Positions 23,659 to 30,726 of a stretch of DNA of 64,000 nt are shown here, one piece after another. Position numbers and translations under genes: made by a program. Where the stretch lies: positions 1-64,000 of the IMG/VR virus record IMGVR_UViG_3300035150_000015; one strand, written 5' to 3'. Position 1 is the first letter of the stretch, and each line of letters opens with the position of its first letter. The stretch is from a virus. The notes under the pieces are model-generated. The model saw only the letters and a program-made list of their open reading frames with translations, was not told where the DNA came from and ran no database searches.

Positions 23659-26274
23659 TCAGAAGGTGATATTCTCCCAGACCACAGTTCGGCCTCTGCG
23701 CTCCCTTTCATCGGGGATCCCGGACTTGTCTGTGATTTGGGCCGGAGCAGTGTCCGGTGGAATCATAGGCGCCAGCTGGTCTGCCACATAACGGGCTACA
23801 TCGTCGAGGGGGACTCGATACCGGATGTCCTGTTCATCCAAATGCCCGATATTGAAATGCTGCTGTAAAATCATTCCCCGATTCGTGGGCATCCTCACGG
23901 CCCCGATCGAGTAACGCTCCCCGTTGATCTTCACAATGAAGTCCCGCTGGCTCACCAAAGGCCTGGGACCCATCCAAACTTCGTAGCTATGCTCAACAGT
24001 CCTGCCGGAATCTCTCTGTGTGATTCGACGCTCTCCGTCATCCGGAGCAATGATGATATCGTACGGGCCCTCAAATCCACCAAGTATCCCAGTGCCGAAG
24101 CAGTTATGTACCACTACTCCTTGAACAACATAAGTATGGTCACCTTCAACCTCAAGATTGTACACCAAGCCTTCGTAGGGGACTGTATCGATGGAACGAA
24201 TTTTAGTCAGCTGTTTACCCCCGTAGGCCCATCGACCTTTTCGATTGCTCTTCTGAAATCCAGTACCAGCCCAATTCACACAATAAGCCAACTTTCTAGG
24301 ATTTCCACTTGGTGCTGCAGGCCCCTTCTGTCTTCGAATCAAAGGCTGCTCACCCATTCGATGCAAAATCTCAGAGATCTGCAAAGACAGAATTTCTGAA
24401 GTCTGGGTAATTTCCGACCCGCCCTTCCATCCATCCCCATCGTAAATTCCTTGGAGAAGGAATCTCTGCTTATCAGGAGGAAGCCTCATAAACTCCTCAG
24501 GAATGTGCTTATTTTCACACCCACGCCCCAACCAAGTAGGAAACCAATCCGACAGATTCGAGCCATTCACATGAACCTGAACACCGTTTTCCCCACTTGG
24601 ACTGATGGATGAAGAATACCCATGATTCTTAAAGTAGGACGTTATCCTACTCTGGAAGTCTTTCTCTTCAGCATGAAGGGAAAAAGTCAGTGATCGAGAG
24701 CTAGAACTCCCTTCTGCCAGATACATACCCACGACCCAAAGGAAATCCTCCCCTACCGTGAAGCTAGTGGCACCTTGTCTCTCAGGCCCAAACTTAGATT
24801 GCTTGCGGAATTTCGAAGGAACTCCAATAGTATCCAGGTCCTCCACCACCGAAGGCCACTGAGAAACCAACCACCCACCTTTATTTAGTTCCTCTGCAGG
24901 TAACCATTCAAAAGAATGACACTTCTTGTGTTCTAGCCTATACGTACAAATAGCCTCTTCAGCTTCCTCTTTAGTGCGATAAGTGCCCAGACTTACCCTC
25001 ATCCCTCTGGTGCCACCCCCAACTCTAGCCCACCATCTACCACTCGGTAAAAGACGAACACTCGGGGGTCCTGAACGAAGGGTATCCTTCATTTCACCAC
25101 ATACTTTAGGCCCACAACCTAGAGCATTGTGATGATGCCCCACCAAAGAATAAAAGGGATGCTCTGGGGTCGCCAGAACAGGGTTGGCCGATACTGTCGG
25201 AAGAACTTTGATCAAATTACCCTTGAAGACTCTCTCGAATAGCTTCGTCACTCTCCGAAAGTCCCCCTTCGATGTCAGAACCTTTTCCCCCACTCGAATC
25301 TGATCAATAGGCTGATACCCAGATTCCGTTCTAACCAGAGACCCAGGAGGAAAACACAAAGTGCAGTCACTCTGGGGTTGCTTGTAGGAAACCTTTTGGA
25401 TGCAGTGACATTGCTGTCCTACGGCCTTCCGAAGAAAAGCTTTGACCCGCTCCCCGCCTTGAGCCAGAATCCACTGGTTTCTCCGAACCGCCTCACGCCA
25501 AATGTAGTCAAGCTTCTCGATCTCGAAATTACTGGTGGCTGCCGCGTACTCGAGAGGGGTCTCTACTAGGTCCTCCGGCTGAACTTCCGAGAGGGGGAGG
25601 TTGATTGGGACCCCGACCGTGGTGACACGGTAGAAAACCCGCTGAGACAAGTCCGTTCGAAGTAAAGAACGATTGTAGCGGTAAGTTACTGTTACCACAC
25701 TGTTTTCTTGTGGGACCACTGGAGTACTTAAAGACTGAGTGGCCACTTCTGGATACCAGTTGGGATCCAGCTCAATCTCCCCCGAAGGCCCATCGACACG
25801 AAGAACTCGAGCCTGCACCCCATCCACCTTGACAATGACCTCAGAAGCCCTGTGCTCCGGGACCGCTTGCGAGCCCGACTGCACAATGGGCCTTTGCTCG
25901 GTCCTGAAGACGTACCTGGGGGCGTCTAACTCACTGGCGGAGCACACCCCCCAGAGCACCCAACGGTCATCAGAGACGACCTCATCGACCACTACAACAT
26001 TGTCCGTTTGGTCCCTCCAGAAGATAGCTCCCACCGGAAGGTCTGTGATCCTCTCAAAGGGGCCGTACTCTGAATCGAAAGACCGATAAATATTGACCCC
26101 GTAGATAGAGAACCGTGAATTCAGAGCCAAAGAGGAGGGGTCATCCCACACCAAATCATACACCCCCGCCAAATACCCACTCGTTAGGAACAGATTGAGA
26201 GGGGGAACAGGCCATGTGACTTTCTCAAGCTCGAGTTGGTCAATTGGCCGGTCTCGATTCGTAGCGTATGGCAT
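23659..26274 (-). CDS. virion neck/head-closure-like protein containing an intein
   Basis: 871-aa precursor, 453 aa after splicing; splicing restores CHC...CTLCFGTG. Confidence 0.65.
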   Translation of the reverse strand: MPYATNRDRPIDQLELEKVTWPVPPLNLFLTSGYLAGVYDLVWDDPSSLALNSRFSIYGVNIYRSFDSEYGPFERITDLPVGAIFWRDQTDNVVVVDEVVSDDRWVLWGVCSASELDAPRYVFRTEQRPIVQSGSQAVPEHRASEVIVKVDGVQARVLRVDGPSGEIELDPNWYPEVATQSLSTPVVPQENSVVTVTYRYNRSLLRTDLSQRVFYRVTTVGVPINLPLSEVQPEDLVETPLEYAAATSNFEIEKLDYIWREAVRRNQWILAQGGERVKAFLRKAVGQQCHCIQKVSYKQPQSDCTLCFPPGSLVRTESGYQPIDQIRVGEKVLTSKGDFRRVTKLFERVFKGNLIKVLPTVSANPVLATPEHPFYSLVGHHHNALGCGPKVCGEMKDTLRSGPPSVRLLPSGRWWARVGGGTRGMRVSLGTYRTKEEAEEAICTYRLEHKKCHSFEWLPAEELNKGGWLVSQWPSVVEDLDTIGVPSKFRKQSKFGPERQGATSFTVGEDFLWVVGMYLAEGSSSSRSLTFSLHAEEKDFQSRITSYFKNHGYSSSISPSGENGVQVHVNGSNLSDWFPTWLGRGCENKHIPEEFMRLPPDKQRFLLQGIYDGDGWKGGSEITQTSEILSLQISEILHRMGEQPLIRRQKGPAAPSGNPRKLAYCVNWAGTGFQKSNRKGRWAYGGKQLTKIRSIDTVPYEGLVYNLEVEGDHTYVVQGVVVHNCFGTGILGGFEGPYDIIIAPDDGERRITQRDSGRTVEHSYEVWMGPRPLVSQRDFIVKINGERYSIGAVRMPTNRGMILQQHFNIGHLDEQDIRYRVPLDDVARYVADQLAPMIPPDTAPAQITDKSGIPDERERRGRTVVWENITF
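24103..25356 (-). mobile_element. cis intein (418 aa) with LAGLIDADG endonuclease and AP2-like insert
   Basis: CFPPGS start, ATPEHPF, VGMYLAEGS, LQGIYDGDG, VYNLEVEGDHTY, VVHN|C. Confidence 0.95.
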
Positions 26275-27077: not shown

Positions 27078-27707
27078 TTAGAACCCAATGAATTTACGGG
27101 GGGTCAGGACCCCAGATCCGGTGTGCGGCCCAAAGGCCGAACGTATCCCGATCCCATATCTAGGCTGCTGGAGCCCTTTGACAATCTTGACCGTCTGCTT
27201 GGCCCGCTCAAGCTGCTTGTCGAACTGGTCACTCATAGCCTGATACAGACTCTCGTACTTCGAGCTCTTGTCGATATCCAGTGAAACCCCTCCAATGGAG
27301 TACGAATTATGAGCTACAATGCCATTGGAAAGCACAAAGTTTTCCGGCCCAGGTACAGAAAGGTCATAGGAATTCTCTAAAGGATCGAGCTCCTCGGTGA
27401 GCAAAACTGGCTGAGAAGTCAATTCACCATCCAACACCACCGCCAATGAATCCCCAACTTTGAACTCATCAGTCAGAGTCTCCTCCAAAGTCCCATCTTC
27501 AGTCACTCTAAAAAGACTGTGATCTTCTGTGGCCACTACTTCCCCGGATTCAACAGTTACCCGGAAAGCCTTTTTGTGGGGGGTGCGATGTTTGAGCACA
27601 TCTCGTACCTTATGCCAATTAACCTTTCCATCAATTTCTACGGACTGGACTTCCAAATGTCCACACTTAAAGGCCTTTTTTATAGCACTTTTAGTCTCTT
27701 GATCCAT
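27078..27707 (-). CDS. split gene piece 3: C-intein 2 (134 aa) + C-extein (75 aa)
   Basis: VATEDHSLF (block B), SYDLSVPGPENF (block F), IVAHN|SYSIGG; no block A. Confidence 0.9.
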   Translation of the reverse strand: MDQETKSAIKKAFKCGHLEVQSVEIDGKVNWHKVRDVLKHRTPHKKAFRVTVESGEVVATEDHSLFRVTEDGTLEETLTDEFKVGDSLAVVLDGELTSQPVLLTEELDPLENSYDLSVPGPENFVLSNGIVAHNSYSIGGVSLDIDKSSKYESLYQAMSDQFDKQLERAKQTVKIVKGLQQPRYGIGIRSAFGPHTGSGVLTPRKFIGF

Positions 27708-28626
27708 GACAGGCCTCCTGAACTTGGCTTATACAGCCTTCTAAGTCTCCCCTAATAGAACACTCCTTCAACCGAACGACCTTCCAGCCCCTTTTCTCAA
27801 GGTAAGTCTGTTTCCTGATGTCCAAAGAGGCCATCTTAGGCTGAGGGGCATACCCACATTCAGTACACCCGTGCCAATAACAACCATCGACCTCTACCGC
27901 CACACGAAGTTCTGGATTAGCTTCATCTATCTCATAATATCCTACACGATGCTCTGTGAGGAAATCTCTTACCCCAGCTAAGTCTAGAGCCGATTTGAAT
28001 TCCAGGTGAAGTTTTGATGTCTTGGAATGATGTCTCCGAGCGTGGGCTGCCGAATCCAAAACGTGCTTCCGATTGTTCTCGACCCACTGCCTCTGCTTCT
28101 TTCTGAATGCAGGGTCTTCCCACATACGTCTGCTGCGCATTGAAGCAGCTTTTTTGAACTCTGGGTCCTGATTCAGAGACCTGAGGTGGGCAGCGGCCCT
28201 CCTCCCATACTCCCCAGCCTGCATTCTTTTAGAAGCCTCAGATATCTGCTTTTTGGTCTTCTGGCCAGCCTCTGTCTGAAACCTAGCCCTTAAGACCTCC
28301 GATTGATGCTCCTTCTGATCTTGGGTTTTGGCTATCCGCCTAGAGCAGAAATTAGATACATAAGTAGCATCGGGGTGTCGCATCTTATAGGCAGCAAGAG
28401 AATAACCACTACACATTTTCAAGTGTTTAGTGGTCAAGATAGAGCAAAAAGCTCCACACTCTACACACCGAACGTAATGCTCGCCCTCCACCATACAATG
28501 TGAGATAACGTCTACCTTATTCCTGAGACCAGAAGTCACCCTCACTGAAATCGCCCCCTCACCCACTAAGGAGTCGAAGGTCCTACTATTTAGGCCAAAC
28601 TTCAGCAGAAATTGACGTTTAGTCAT
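27691..28626 (-). CDS. Vsr/DUF559-like free-standing endonuclease within split intein 2
   Basis: YEIDEA..VAVEVDGCYWHGC..D.RKQTYLEKRGWKVVRLKEC; N-terminal zinc finger and helical repeats. Confidence 0.85.
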   Translation of the reverse strand: MTKRQFLLKFGLNSRTFDSLVGEGAISVRVTSGLRNKVDVISHCMVEGEHYVRCVECGAFCSILTTKHLKMCSGYSLAAYKMRHPDATYVSNFCSRRIAKTQDQKEHQSEVLRARFQTEAGQKTKKQISEASKRMQAGEYGRRAAAHLRSLNQDPEFKKAASMRSRRMWEDPAFRKKQRQWVENNRKHVLDSAAHARRHHSKTSKLHLEFKSALDLAGVRDFLTEHRVGYYEIDEANPELRVAVEVDGCYWHGCTECGYAPQPKMASLDIRKQTYLEKRGWKVVRLKECSIRGDLEGCISQVQEACHGSRD

Positions 28627-29359
28627 TGCAGATAGAATGTAGGTCCTGAAGGCTGATGTCAATCTCCCCCAGGTCTGGAGTCCGAACTCTCACTACAGAA
28701 TCCCCGGAAAGTGAAAACTCATCGGCTACCCAGTTCATCATCAAGGCAAAGATAGCGTGAAGCATGGCCCCATTCAGCAAGAGGGTCCTCCAGTCTGGAT
28801 AGCATCTAATCATAGACTGACAATTCGTGAAGACCGTCCGAGGGGGAGCCGCAGAAATCATGTCCAGAGACCTCAAGAGATACTCTTGGAGCTCGGCATC
28901 CTCCCAGATGTAACCAAATACCCGATTGAACTGCGAAACAGTGGTTTCGTGGGCAGGTGGCCTGAAGTGGTAGTTTCTATCGGGGGAATTTGATACAAGC
29001 ATCCCAGATTTCACCAGGAAAAAATTGTGCCAATCCTCAGCGGTAAGGTCATACATATACTGACGGGAAGGCAATCTCCTGACAGACACCACCGAAACCC
29101 CAGAAACCGAATCCCCCGAACAAAGCTTCTCCGCCTCAATCTTACTTGTAGGGGTGAGGAATACTCGGTGTCCTCCCGTGAGTACAGAAACTCCCTTAGA
29201 AGTAGCAACTTCTACTATGGTTTCAGGGCCTACTTCCGACCGACTGACTTCAAGAACCTTCTTCCAATCCAACTGTCCATCAGGCCCACAAGACTTCACC
29301 CTAAGCTTACCAGAAGCATAGGCAGCTCGAATTCTATCTCGTTGTACTTCGTTCAACAT
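28619..29359 (-). CDS. split gene piece 2: C-intein 1 + middle extein (91 aa) + N-intein 2 (31 aa)
   Basis: LTGGHRVF, MYDLTAEDWHNF, LVSN|SPDRNY (junction 28988/28987); WVADEF|SLSGDSVVRV (junction 28715/28714). Confidence 0.88.
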   Translation of the reverse strand: MLNEVQRDRIRAAYASGKLRVKSCGPDGQLDWKKVLEVSRSEVGPETIVEVATSKGVSVLTGGHRVFLTPTSKIEAEKLCSGDSVSGVSVVSVRRLPSRQYMYDLTAEDWHNFFLVKSGMLVSNSPDRNYHFRPPAHETTVSQFNRVFGYIWEDAELQEYLLRSLDMISAAPPRTVFTNCQSMIRCYPDWRTLLLNGAMLHAIFALMMNWVADEFSLSGDSVVRVRTPDLGEIDISLQDLHSICND

Positions 29360-30272
29360 TTCCAAAATCTTTCTCGGTCAGAATTCGGAAGTCCCACCCT
29401 TGATCAAAAGCAAAAGAAGAAGCTTGACGAAGACGCTTCCGAATCTTGTGTTCTTCAGGCAGCTCCAGCACCCAACTGGCCTTCACCTCTATCAAAACCA
29501 CTCCACTTCCATACCGAACCACAAAGTCTGGGAGAATCCACCGGCCACCCGGAAGTTCCAGTCTGGGTTCAAAATGATACTCCAGAACCGAAGTGTCTGA
29601 GTCTAATATCTTGACCACGACCCTTTCGTAGCTACTGCGGGTCCAGATTGGAGACCGAGAACACTTCTCGGGGGTCACCCAGGCTCCTCTTCCACGACAC
29701 CATTTCTCAGGGGTCTTCAGCATCCTTTTAGTTTGAGCCTCAGAGCGTTCTCTTCTGGTTTCCTCAGAACGATGATAATCCAGGAGGGCTTTCCGGAACT
29801 CCGGATTCTGCCATCTCCGAAGAGCCGACTGATGTCTCCTCTCCTTCACCTCCGGACGAAGAGAAGCCAACCGAAGGGTTTCTCGTTCTTGTTCGGAACG
29901 AATACGACCTCGGTGAAAGTCGAAGGAACCTGATGCCCATTGCAACTTCAACTGGCCAGACAGCCAAGGTTTTTTCTCTCCTTTTCTAGCTCTACCAACC
30001 TTCGCTGCACTCTCTCGACGATTTCTCCGAGAAGCCTCATTCCACATCGCACGAGTGCCCCTTTGAATAGCCCCTAAAGAGAGGCCAGTCACTGCGATCA
30101 TATGGTTCCAACTCATACCCGAAAGATGAAGTTCGGTGATGATATCTCGACGCTTCTCAGTTACCCAATGTAGGTCTTTGGGCAAGCGACCTTTTCGAGA
30201 GAACAACTCCCAAGACAACCCATGCTTCTCAAGAAGGGGTATCAGTTCCGTGGATGGTTTCGAAGAGCTCAC
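29334..30272 (-). CDS. TnsA-like PD-(D/E)XK free-standing endonuclease within split intein 1
   Basis: RSSYE...YHFEP...ILPDFVV...LIEVKA...FRILTE; HTH and helical repeats N-terminally; start uncertain. Confidence 0.8.
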   Translation of the reverse strand: MSSSKPSTELIPLLEKHGLSWELFSRKGRLPKDLHWVTEKRRDIITELHLSGMSWNHMIAVTGLSLGAIQRGTRAMWNEASRRNRRESAAKVGRARKGEKKPWLSGQLKLQWASGSFDFHRGRIRSEQERETLRLASLRPEVKERRHQSALRRWQNPEFRKALLDYHRSEETRRERSEAQTKRMLKTPEKWCRGRGAWVTPEKCSRSPIWTRSSYERVVVKILDSDTSVLEYHFEPRLELPGGRWILPDFVVRYGSGVVLIEVKASWVLELPEEHKIRKRLRQASSFAFDQGWDFRILTEKDFGNVERSTTR

Positions 30273-30726
30273 GGAGGGATACTATCATTTTTCCCCCATC
30301 CACATCAAGCTCAATCTCCTCTTCTCCCCCAAGGCAATTGTCTCTCAGGAGGATCCTGAGCCTCCGCATCATATCCGTTTCACAGTCACTGTAAAGAGTC
30401 ACCAAGTTTGTGGCTTTGTCGATGACCTCGAACTCCTGGACCACCTGATGCACGGGTCCGCCAACCAACTCCCGGAAAGTCCAACGAACCCGGTAGGATC
30501 CAATATTGGCATCCAGAGGGATGATGATCGAGGCGTAGTAGTGCCCAACCGAGGGGTTGACAGGTGTGCGATGAGGGACTCCCAAAAGAACCTCTAACCC
30601 GGTCGTGAAATCGTAGAGGGCATAGGTAATTTCGGCCGCATTGGTAGGGTGTCCTGAACTGTTGTCCAAGTAAATGTTCAGGTCCTCGGCGCCTAGTTGC
30701 TGACCTCGGTAAAACGCTACGGACAT
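30229..30726 (-). CDS. split gene piece 1: N-extein (130 aa) + N-intein 1 (35 aa); putative neck/adaptor protein
   Basis: RRLRILLRDN|CLGGEEEIEL...IVSLRELFE (block A from 30336). Confidence 0.85.
   Translation of the reverse strand: MSVAFYRGQQLGAEDLNIYLDNSSGHPTNAAEITYALYDFTTGLEVLLGVPHRTPVNPSVGHYYASIIIPLDANIGSYRVRWTFRELVGGPVHQVVQEFEVIDKATNLVTLYSDCETDMMRRLRILLRDNCLGGEEEIELDVDGGKMIVSLRELFETIHGTDTPS

Follow-up and report, generated by a model that had tools for sequence, protein, structure and literature searches.

The 64,000-nucleotide (nt) stretch analyzed here (the window) covers positions 1 to 64,000 of the IMG/VR virus record IMGVR_UViG_3300035150_000015 and carries a virion gene, coding for a probable head-to-tail adaptor protein, that is divided into three pieces by two split inteins. 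The record has a length of 104 kb and an estimated completeness of only 22%, which means that the phage is huge. The locus consists of five open reading frames (ORFs), all on the minus strand and each overlapping the next end to end. Three of them encode the parts of the virion protein (the exteins) joined to N-terminal (IntN) or C-terminal (IntC) intein halves, and each gap between the pieces is occupied by one nuclease gene. The features, in minus-strand order and with lengths in amino acids (aa), are the following:

30229-30726, minus strand: piece 1, 165 aa, made up of the 130-aa N-extein ending in LRDN and the 35-aa IntN1 (CLGGEEE...).
30337-30726, minus strand: N-extein, 130 aa, ending in LRDN; matched by tblastn with the intein-free homologue P0117 (query residues 1-130, 94% identity).
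30232-30336, minus strand: IntN1, the 35-aa N-half of the predicted atypically split intein 1, with Cys1 and a net charge of -6.
29334-30272, minus strand: nuclease gene 1, free-standing, 312 aa, overlapping both adjoining ORFs.
28619-29359 (from ATG) or 28619-29365 (from TTG), minus strand: piece 2, consisting of IntC1, a 91-aa extein and IntN2.
28988-29359 (29365 from TTG), minus strand: IntC1, 124 aa, with block B TGGH and block F YDLT...WHNF, ending in ...MLVSN and followed by a +1 Ser; net charge +3.
28715-28987, minus strand: middle extein, 91 aa, SPDRNYHF...NWVADEF, collinear with residues 131-221 of P0117 (88% identity, tblastn).
28622-28714, minus strand: IntN2, 31 aa, SLSGDS...ICND, with Ser1 and a net charge of -3; stop codon at 28619-28621.
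27691-28626 (likely ATG), minus strand: nuclease gene 2, free-standing, Vsr-like/DUF559, with the motif VEVDGCYWHGC.
27078-27707, minus strand: piece 3, 209 aa, made up of the 134-aa IntC2 and the 75-aa C-extein.
27306-27707, minus strand: IntC2, 134 aa, with block B TEDH and block F YDLSVPG, ending in AHN and followed by a +1 Ser; net charge -10.
27081-27305, minus strand: C-extein, 75 aa, SYSIGGVSL...PRKFIGF; tblastn match with P0117 (query residues 212-296, 81% identity).

The initial annotation of this stretch had read the middle piece as IntC-extein-IntN, and this geometry was borne out, with IntC1, the 91-aa extein and IntN2 in a single ORF. The residues that it listed were also found as described: on recounting, IntN1 starts with Cys and has nine acidic and two basic residues, IntN2 starts with Ser and has six and two, and IntC1 ends in VSN and IntC2 in AHN. 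The same holds for the lengths of the two cross-reaction products that it envisaged, a cyclic form of the 91-aa middle extein and a skipped form of 205 aa (130 + 75). Piece 2 measures 248 aa when translated from the TTG at 29365 and 246 aa from the ATG at 29359, the latter being in agreement with the starts of the homologues (MLxxxQ...). For nuclease 2, the mechanically called ORF begins at TTG 28662; the likely start, as judged from the homologues in the loci L013, L044 and L102, is the ATG at 28626, which gives an 8-nt overlap with the end of piece 2 at its stop codon.

The undivided form of the gene is represented by P0117, a close metagenomic homologue of 296 aa (130 + 91 + 75) that reads without a break through both sites (LRDN-NPDRNYHF and ADEF-DYSIGG), with the insertion points lying after LRDN at site 1 and after ADEF at site 2. 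Both sites are likewise free of inteins in a 283-aa homologue, gp319 of the Tunturiibacter phage Tunturi_5, annotated as 'head-tail connector protein', and in about 58 of the 80 IMG/VR loci; a homologue in LR745208.1 is fractured at site 1 only, and site 2 of L001 has no interruption. The AlphaFold model of P0117 has a beta domain (residues 1-102), a helix (114-129) that ends at site 1 and is followed by a conserved loop, then helices 160-176 and 186-217, the latter ending near site 2, a hairpin and then helix 231-258. According to this model, the middle extein is predicted to be part of the helical core, to which it contributes helices 160-176 and 186-217, and no separable module. Foldseek with the intein-free host protein gave weak matches only, the most relevant being the siphophage portal-adaptor chain 8gtd_M (E 1e-3). 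The host gene thus probably codes for a portal adaptor or neck protein, a label that is owed mainly to the annotation of the Tunturi_5 homologue.

As for the interrupting elements, position 1, directly after the N-extein, is a nucleophile at both sites (LRDN/C and ADEF/S, with the slash marking the intein boundary). In IntC2 the sequences TEDH, YDLS and AHN/S provide the class 1 residues of block B, block F, the terminal Asn and the +1 position. In IntC1, residues T63, H66, D106 and N126 do not vary among 30 middle pieces, and a Ser or Cys always stands at +1. The Pfam family Intein_splicing matched piece 3 with 6.3e-12, above the gathering cut-off, and piece 2 with 8.5e-7, the score of IntC1 being under the cut-off. 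In the AlphaFold model of IntC1, the predicted local distance difference test (pLDDT) is mostly 81-97, and its structural alignment by VIA-align gave a Z of 11.4 with the Mtu RecA mini-intein over 108 residues (root-mean-square deviation 2.5), of 10.0 with VidaL and of 9.9 with Cat, at 14-16% identity to Cat and VidaL. The structural alignment covered IntC1, and the HINT assignment of IntC2 is by Pfam (6.3e-12). Taken together, these features suggest that both are class 1 inteins, for which splicing is predicted.

The opposite possibility, that the inteins no longer splice and that the pieces assemble non-covalently through the intein halves, or that the gene is decaying, finds some ground in the lack of the usual penultimate His in intein 1 (intein 2 has it) and in the score of IntC1 under the Pfam cut-off. 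A penultimate Ser, however, is the norm of the intein 1 family (103 of 116 sequences), and inteins without the penultimate His are known to splice, this residue being common and not obligatory. The catalytic Thr/His, Asp, Asn and +1 nucleophile have moreover been kept across the 30 diverged middle pieces, none of the ORFs of the locus is broken, and the virion gene is conserved and present in a single copy. We consider a loss of splicing very improbable.

Both inteins are split early, between the first hairpin and helix on one side and block B on the other. Since block B resides on IntC1 and IntC2, the split position of both is atypical, and the short IntN halves (35 and 31 aa, under about 40 aa), each on a polypeptide of its own, are those of atypically split inteins. 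The split point coincides with a loop position seen in contiguous forms of both inteins, in which IntN1 is continuous with IntC1 (P0013-P0106) or IntN2 with IntC2 (L003, L036, L065, P0043, P0054 and P0057). The consensus of the 16 members of the IntN1 family is CVGGEElVELDVdGERM.V.MdDLWEal, with an invariant Cys1; the IntC2 family counts 17 members.

At both gaps a free-standing endonuclease ORF lies on the same strand between the IntN and the IntC ORF, which is the arrangement of a fractured gene. Nuclease 1 has a C-terminal TnsA-N-like PD-(D/E)xK domain (Pfam PF08722, 1.2e-5, just under the cut-off), and homologous ORFs were found in the same gap in L001, L003, L004, L008, L102, L103, L115 and L117. 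Nuclease 2 matched Pfam DUF559 (2.1e-5) and Vsr (0.006) as well as endonuclease and homing-endonuclease families of PHROG; a sequence search of the PDB with it gave no match. Other occupants of the same loops were also observed, namely an HNH-type ORF in the site-1 intein of L005 (4175-5011) and an unrelated 433-aa ORF in the site-2 intein of L115 (5272-6570), and these differences point to nuclease replacement. In L073 (3880-5451), a single 523-aa ORF combines, in frame, the Vsr-like nuclease with IntC2 and the C-extein, and IntN2 is on the preceding ORF.

A search with piece 2 returned 513 relatives, and the layouts were scored in the best 120, taken as representatives of 90%-identity clusters. 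About 70 of these 120 have the form IntC1 + extein 2 + extein 3, fractured at site 1 only; 29 show IntC1-extein-IntN2 as in the window; nine have a contiguous intein 1 of 151-164 aa followed by extein 2 and IntN2, three a contiguous intein 2, and P0117 is intein-free. The complete five-ORF arrangement recurs in four independent metagenome loci (L102, L103/104, L115/116 and L117). The states known for each site are empty, filled by a contiguous intein, and split, either together with a nuclease gene or in the absence of one. Split inteins with the nuclease gene occur in L001, L004, L008, L010, L012-14, L033 and L044; the nuclease gene is missing at site 1 of L006 and at site 2 of the doubly split L097, L118 and L124. 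A split intein 1 is combined with a contiguous intein 2 in L003 and L149, and contiguous mini-inteins are found at site 1 in P0013-P0106 and at site 2 in L003, L036 and L065. Both inteins have near-identical alleles of which one is split and the other contiguous (P0015/L003 for intein 1, L014/L003 for intein 2), which indicates that the gain or loss of a nuclease gene in that loop interconverts the forms. A permuted order was observed in L064 (3955-5393), where IntC2 and the C-extein stand upstream of an ORF with N-extein, extein 2 and IntN2, with no nuclease gene between them; the IntN2 of this locus is IntN1-like (25.7 bits on the IntN1 hidden Markov model, HMM) yet starts with Ser1.

The occupancy of site 2 was followed on a maximum-likelihood tree of 108 intein-1-bearing genes, built from the last 100 residues of intein 1 together with extein 2. 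It changes 31 times on this tree, at least 20 of the changes being forced by well-supported branches, and shuffled labels give an average of 32.4. The sister of the window on the tree, P0002, is 80% identical and has an empty site 2. Among the IMG/VR loci, both sites were found occupied together once, where about one case is expected under independence (6 x 14 / 80). The scattered occupancy of site 2 and the double occupancy at expectation indicate that the two inteins come and go independently and that their alleles are constantly re-paired.

The middle piece thus probably owes its existence to two independent, related mobile inteins at two conserved sites of one essential virion gene, and two such independent insertions fully explain the layout. 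The split loop of each intein would hold, now or in the past, the gene of a free-standing homing nuclease. To judge from their overlaps, the five ORFs are probably co-expressed; IntN1 would then pair with IntC1 and IntN2 with IntC2, and two class 1 trans-splicing reactions would join the 130, 91 and 75 residues into the 296-aa protein. For this product each half would have to react with its own partner, which would depend on discrimination between the two lineages. We infer that both inteins splice, that they do so orthogonally and that side products are negligible.

The differences between the two pairs had been attributed in the initial annotation to selection for strict orthogonality or to alternative splicing at the protein level. 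The identity between the halves in the window is 23% for IntN1/IntN2 and 25% for IntC1/IntC2. The HMMs keep the lineages apart, with about 60 bits for its own and 7 for the other family with the IntN1 model, about 51 and 11 with the IntN2 model, and 165 and 60 with each of the IntC models; the IntN2 family set was defined without the intein-free alleles that have Ser at +1 (SYSIGG). The two pairs are clearly distinct, and together with the repeated co-occurrence of the two inteins in nature this speaks indirectly for a possible orthogonality.

It could be argued that co-residence in one gene drove the pairs apart, the differences in nucleophile, charge and VSN/AHN having been selected against cross reactions. 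The IntN1 and IntN2 families do differ consistently at the nucleophile, in charge and at related positions, such as one strand position with Glu in IntN1 (VELDV) and often with Arg or Lys in IntN2 (VRVxL). With the net charges of the window, the skipping pair IntN1 (-6) x IntC2 (-10) would repel each other, and the cyclizing pair would not. A selection pressure is also plausible, because published screens single out atypically split inteins as the ones that cross-interact most readily; when 24 x 24 combinations were screened, cross-interaction mostly involved inteins with an atypical split (PMC7090010). The same traits, however, are unchanged where each intein lives alone. Cys1 (16/16) with 6-9 acidic residues characterizes the IntN1 family whether or not site 2 is occupied, and Ser1 (58/58) with a median of 5.5 acidic residues the IntN2 family whether or not site 1 is occupied. 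The penultimate Ser of intein 1 is present in 64 of 72 single-intein and in 39 of 44 double-intein genes, that is, in 89% of both. Furthermore, IntN1 and IntN2 of the same genome are 18-25% identical (n = 5), no lower than the between-genome mean of 21% (range 11-31), and the occupancy of site 2, which is random on the tree, turns over too fast for pairwise co-adaptation. The Cys/Ser, acidity and VSN/AHN differences are inherited lineage traits and not adaptations to the sharing of a gene, and the proposed selection for strict orthogonality found no support in them; a divergence driven by co-residence seems improbable to us. An ancient divergence of the lineages under selection against cross reactions is possible. 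Since the alleles of both inteins are constantly reshuffled, any orthogonality would be a general property of the lineages and not a local adaptation.

Several observations weigh against the reading of two independent inteins that splice orthogonally. IntC1 and IntC2 are homologous (E 1e-9), and the split falls at the same place in both inteins. A pairing of IntN2 (-3) with IntC1 (+3) is not electrostatically disfavored, and in the AlphaFold model of piece 2, obtained with an alignment of 30 middle pieces, the non-cognate IntN2 tail has a pLDDT of 93-94 and adopts the expected hairpin and helix. This suggests that IntN2 could sterically complete the HINT fold of IntC1, a reading from pLDDT and secondary structure that has no bearing on specificity. 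The frequencies of double occupancy come from biased or small samples. The IntN halves of GOS-TerL and AceL-TerL are interchangeable. Engineered IntN peptides of 11-12 aa cross-react at 40-50% identity (PMC3443213), so that divergence alone is no proof of orthogonality.

The order of piece 2 had also been compared with the layout that is used for the cyclization of proteins. In split-intein circular ligation of peptides and proteins (SICLOPPS), the two halves are those of one and the same intein. The order IntC-target-IntN is indeed the same in piece 2, but its halves derive from different inteins, the IntN of the other family scoring only about 7-11 bits on the HMMs, and each half has its own partner in the locus.

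In the other reading of the initial annotation, protein-level alternative splicing would yield a functional cyclic 91-mer (IntC1 x IntN2) or a functional 205-aa skipped adaptor (IntN1 x IntC2). Both +1 residues are Ser, and both cross reactions are therefore chemically possible. The model of piece 2 is also compatible with ring closure, with a confident IntN2 and a floppy extein (disordered at residues 128-153 and 211-216), and the intramolecular arrangement would give a high effective concentration. On the other hand, none of the 23 relatives found through the N-extein alone has a form without the middle 91 aa, the segment that holds the two long core helices, and one gene (P0117) or two (P0002) suffice for the same protein in close relatives, so that an extra product is not needed. 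The layout itself appears and vanishes at random on the tree. Atypically split inteins have been reported to need threading of the N-extein through IntC (review PMC11766414), and by analogy this would hinder the tethered, intramolecular reaction of IntC1 with IntN2. The suggestion of alternative splicing thus found no support, and we hold functional products of this kind for hardly credible; cyclic 91-mer and skipped 205-aa forms would at most be minor side products. It is likewise highly unlikely that the non-cognate halves react measurably in infected cells to give a cyclic 91-mer or a skipped adaptor that has a separate function; if they did, the non-cognate products could tune the amount of full-length adaptor, as a natural case of alternative splicing at the protein level.

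Fractured genes, naturally atypically split inteins and engineered tandem trans-splicing are each established, and the locus can be compared with all three. In the fractured genes of Dassa, London, Stoddard, Schueler-Furman and Pietrokovski (2009, PMC2677866), as in the window, a split intein interrupts a phage gene and a free-standing homing-nuclease gene lies between the halves on the same strand; nuclease 2 falls in the Vsr-like family defined in that paper. The genes described there have one fracture each and code for DNA-metabolism enzymes and terminase, whereas in the window a structural gene of the virion is fractured twice in tandem, with both inteins split at the early atypical site, and nuclease 1 is TnsA-N-like and not GIY-YIG or Vsr-like.

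The naturally atypically split inteins AceL-TerL, GOS-TerL, the consensus Cat (PDB 6DSL), VidaL (6VGV) and PolB16 OarG (PMC10189870) share with those of the window an IntN of only 15-37 aa and a long IntC with block B, and PolB16 OarG has the same Ser1/Ser+1 chemistry as intein 2. They differ in host gene and insertion sites and have low sequence identity; in the window, in addition, two such inteins would act on one protein in tandem, and intein 1 combines Cys1/Ser+1 with a penultimate Ser. In engineered tandem trans-splicing (Humberg et al., 2025, PMC12707363), two cognate reactions link three pieces, the middle one composed as IntC(A)-segment-IntN(B), and the orthogonality of the pairs is a stated design requirement. 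The inteins of that artificial system are unrelated and canonically split; the system of the window is natural, and its inteins are related and atypically split. By this analogy, the IntC-extein-IntN piece would correspond in nature to the middle segment of the engineered scheme and be no cyclization device. We found no literature on a natural gene with two split inteins in tandem, a weak absence given the incomplete coverage of subscription journals.

It appears that a protein is ligated here naturally, in one pot and from three pieces, by two related inteins whose split is atypical and whose IntN halves measure only about 30 residues. The same scheme is assembled by hand in protein engineering, where well-behaved orthogonal pairs are lacking, especially pairs with a short IntN and pairs independent of cysteine; intein 2 uses Ser1/Ser+1. 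The free recombination of alleles in wild phages implies that any orthogonality would be robust in the lineages, and this recommends them for testing. The states of the two sites, moreover, which range from empty and contiguous to split with and split without a nuclease gene, form a compact record of the origin and decay of split inteins.

Some further observations concern the host gene and its surroundings. Among the relatives P0002-P0121, the alleles with an empty site 2 have Asp (38), Ser (22), Asn (6), Thr (1) or Gly (1) at the +1 position; a Ser there could be the footprint of a precise intein loss or mark an allele already able to take the intein. Just upstream of the adaptor gene, many relatives have a paralogue of its beta domain, with 25-33% identity to residues 5-105 (for example, L004 3165-3644 and L003 2801-3049). 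Directly downstream, a large ORF with many 'NLERYG'-type repeats and a C-terminal Vsr/DUF559-like motif (VE.NG/FGD.WH) is present in many relatives, among them L004 (5916-7340), L005 (5898-7577), L006 (5942-8272), L013 (2252-3859) and L044 (6999-9317), and it may be another free-standing nuclease. In the window no such repeat ORF lies directly downstream of the adaptor gene. The next downstream gene is at 23659-26274 on the minus strand (871 aa) and contains a contiguous intein with a LAGLIDADG-type nuclease domain (CFPPGS...VVHN/C; Pfam matches Intein_splicing, Hint_2 and LAGLIDADG_3). Two further intein-bearing ORFs of ~1115 aa are located outside the window in the same 104-kb record (G000:C1:67856-69187 and 97717-99012), which brings the inteins of the record to at least five in roughly a fifth of the genome.

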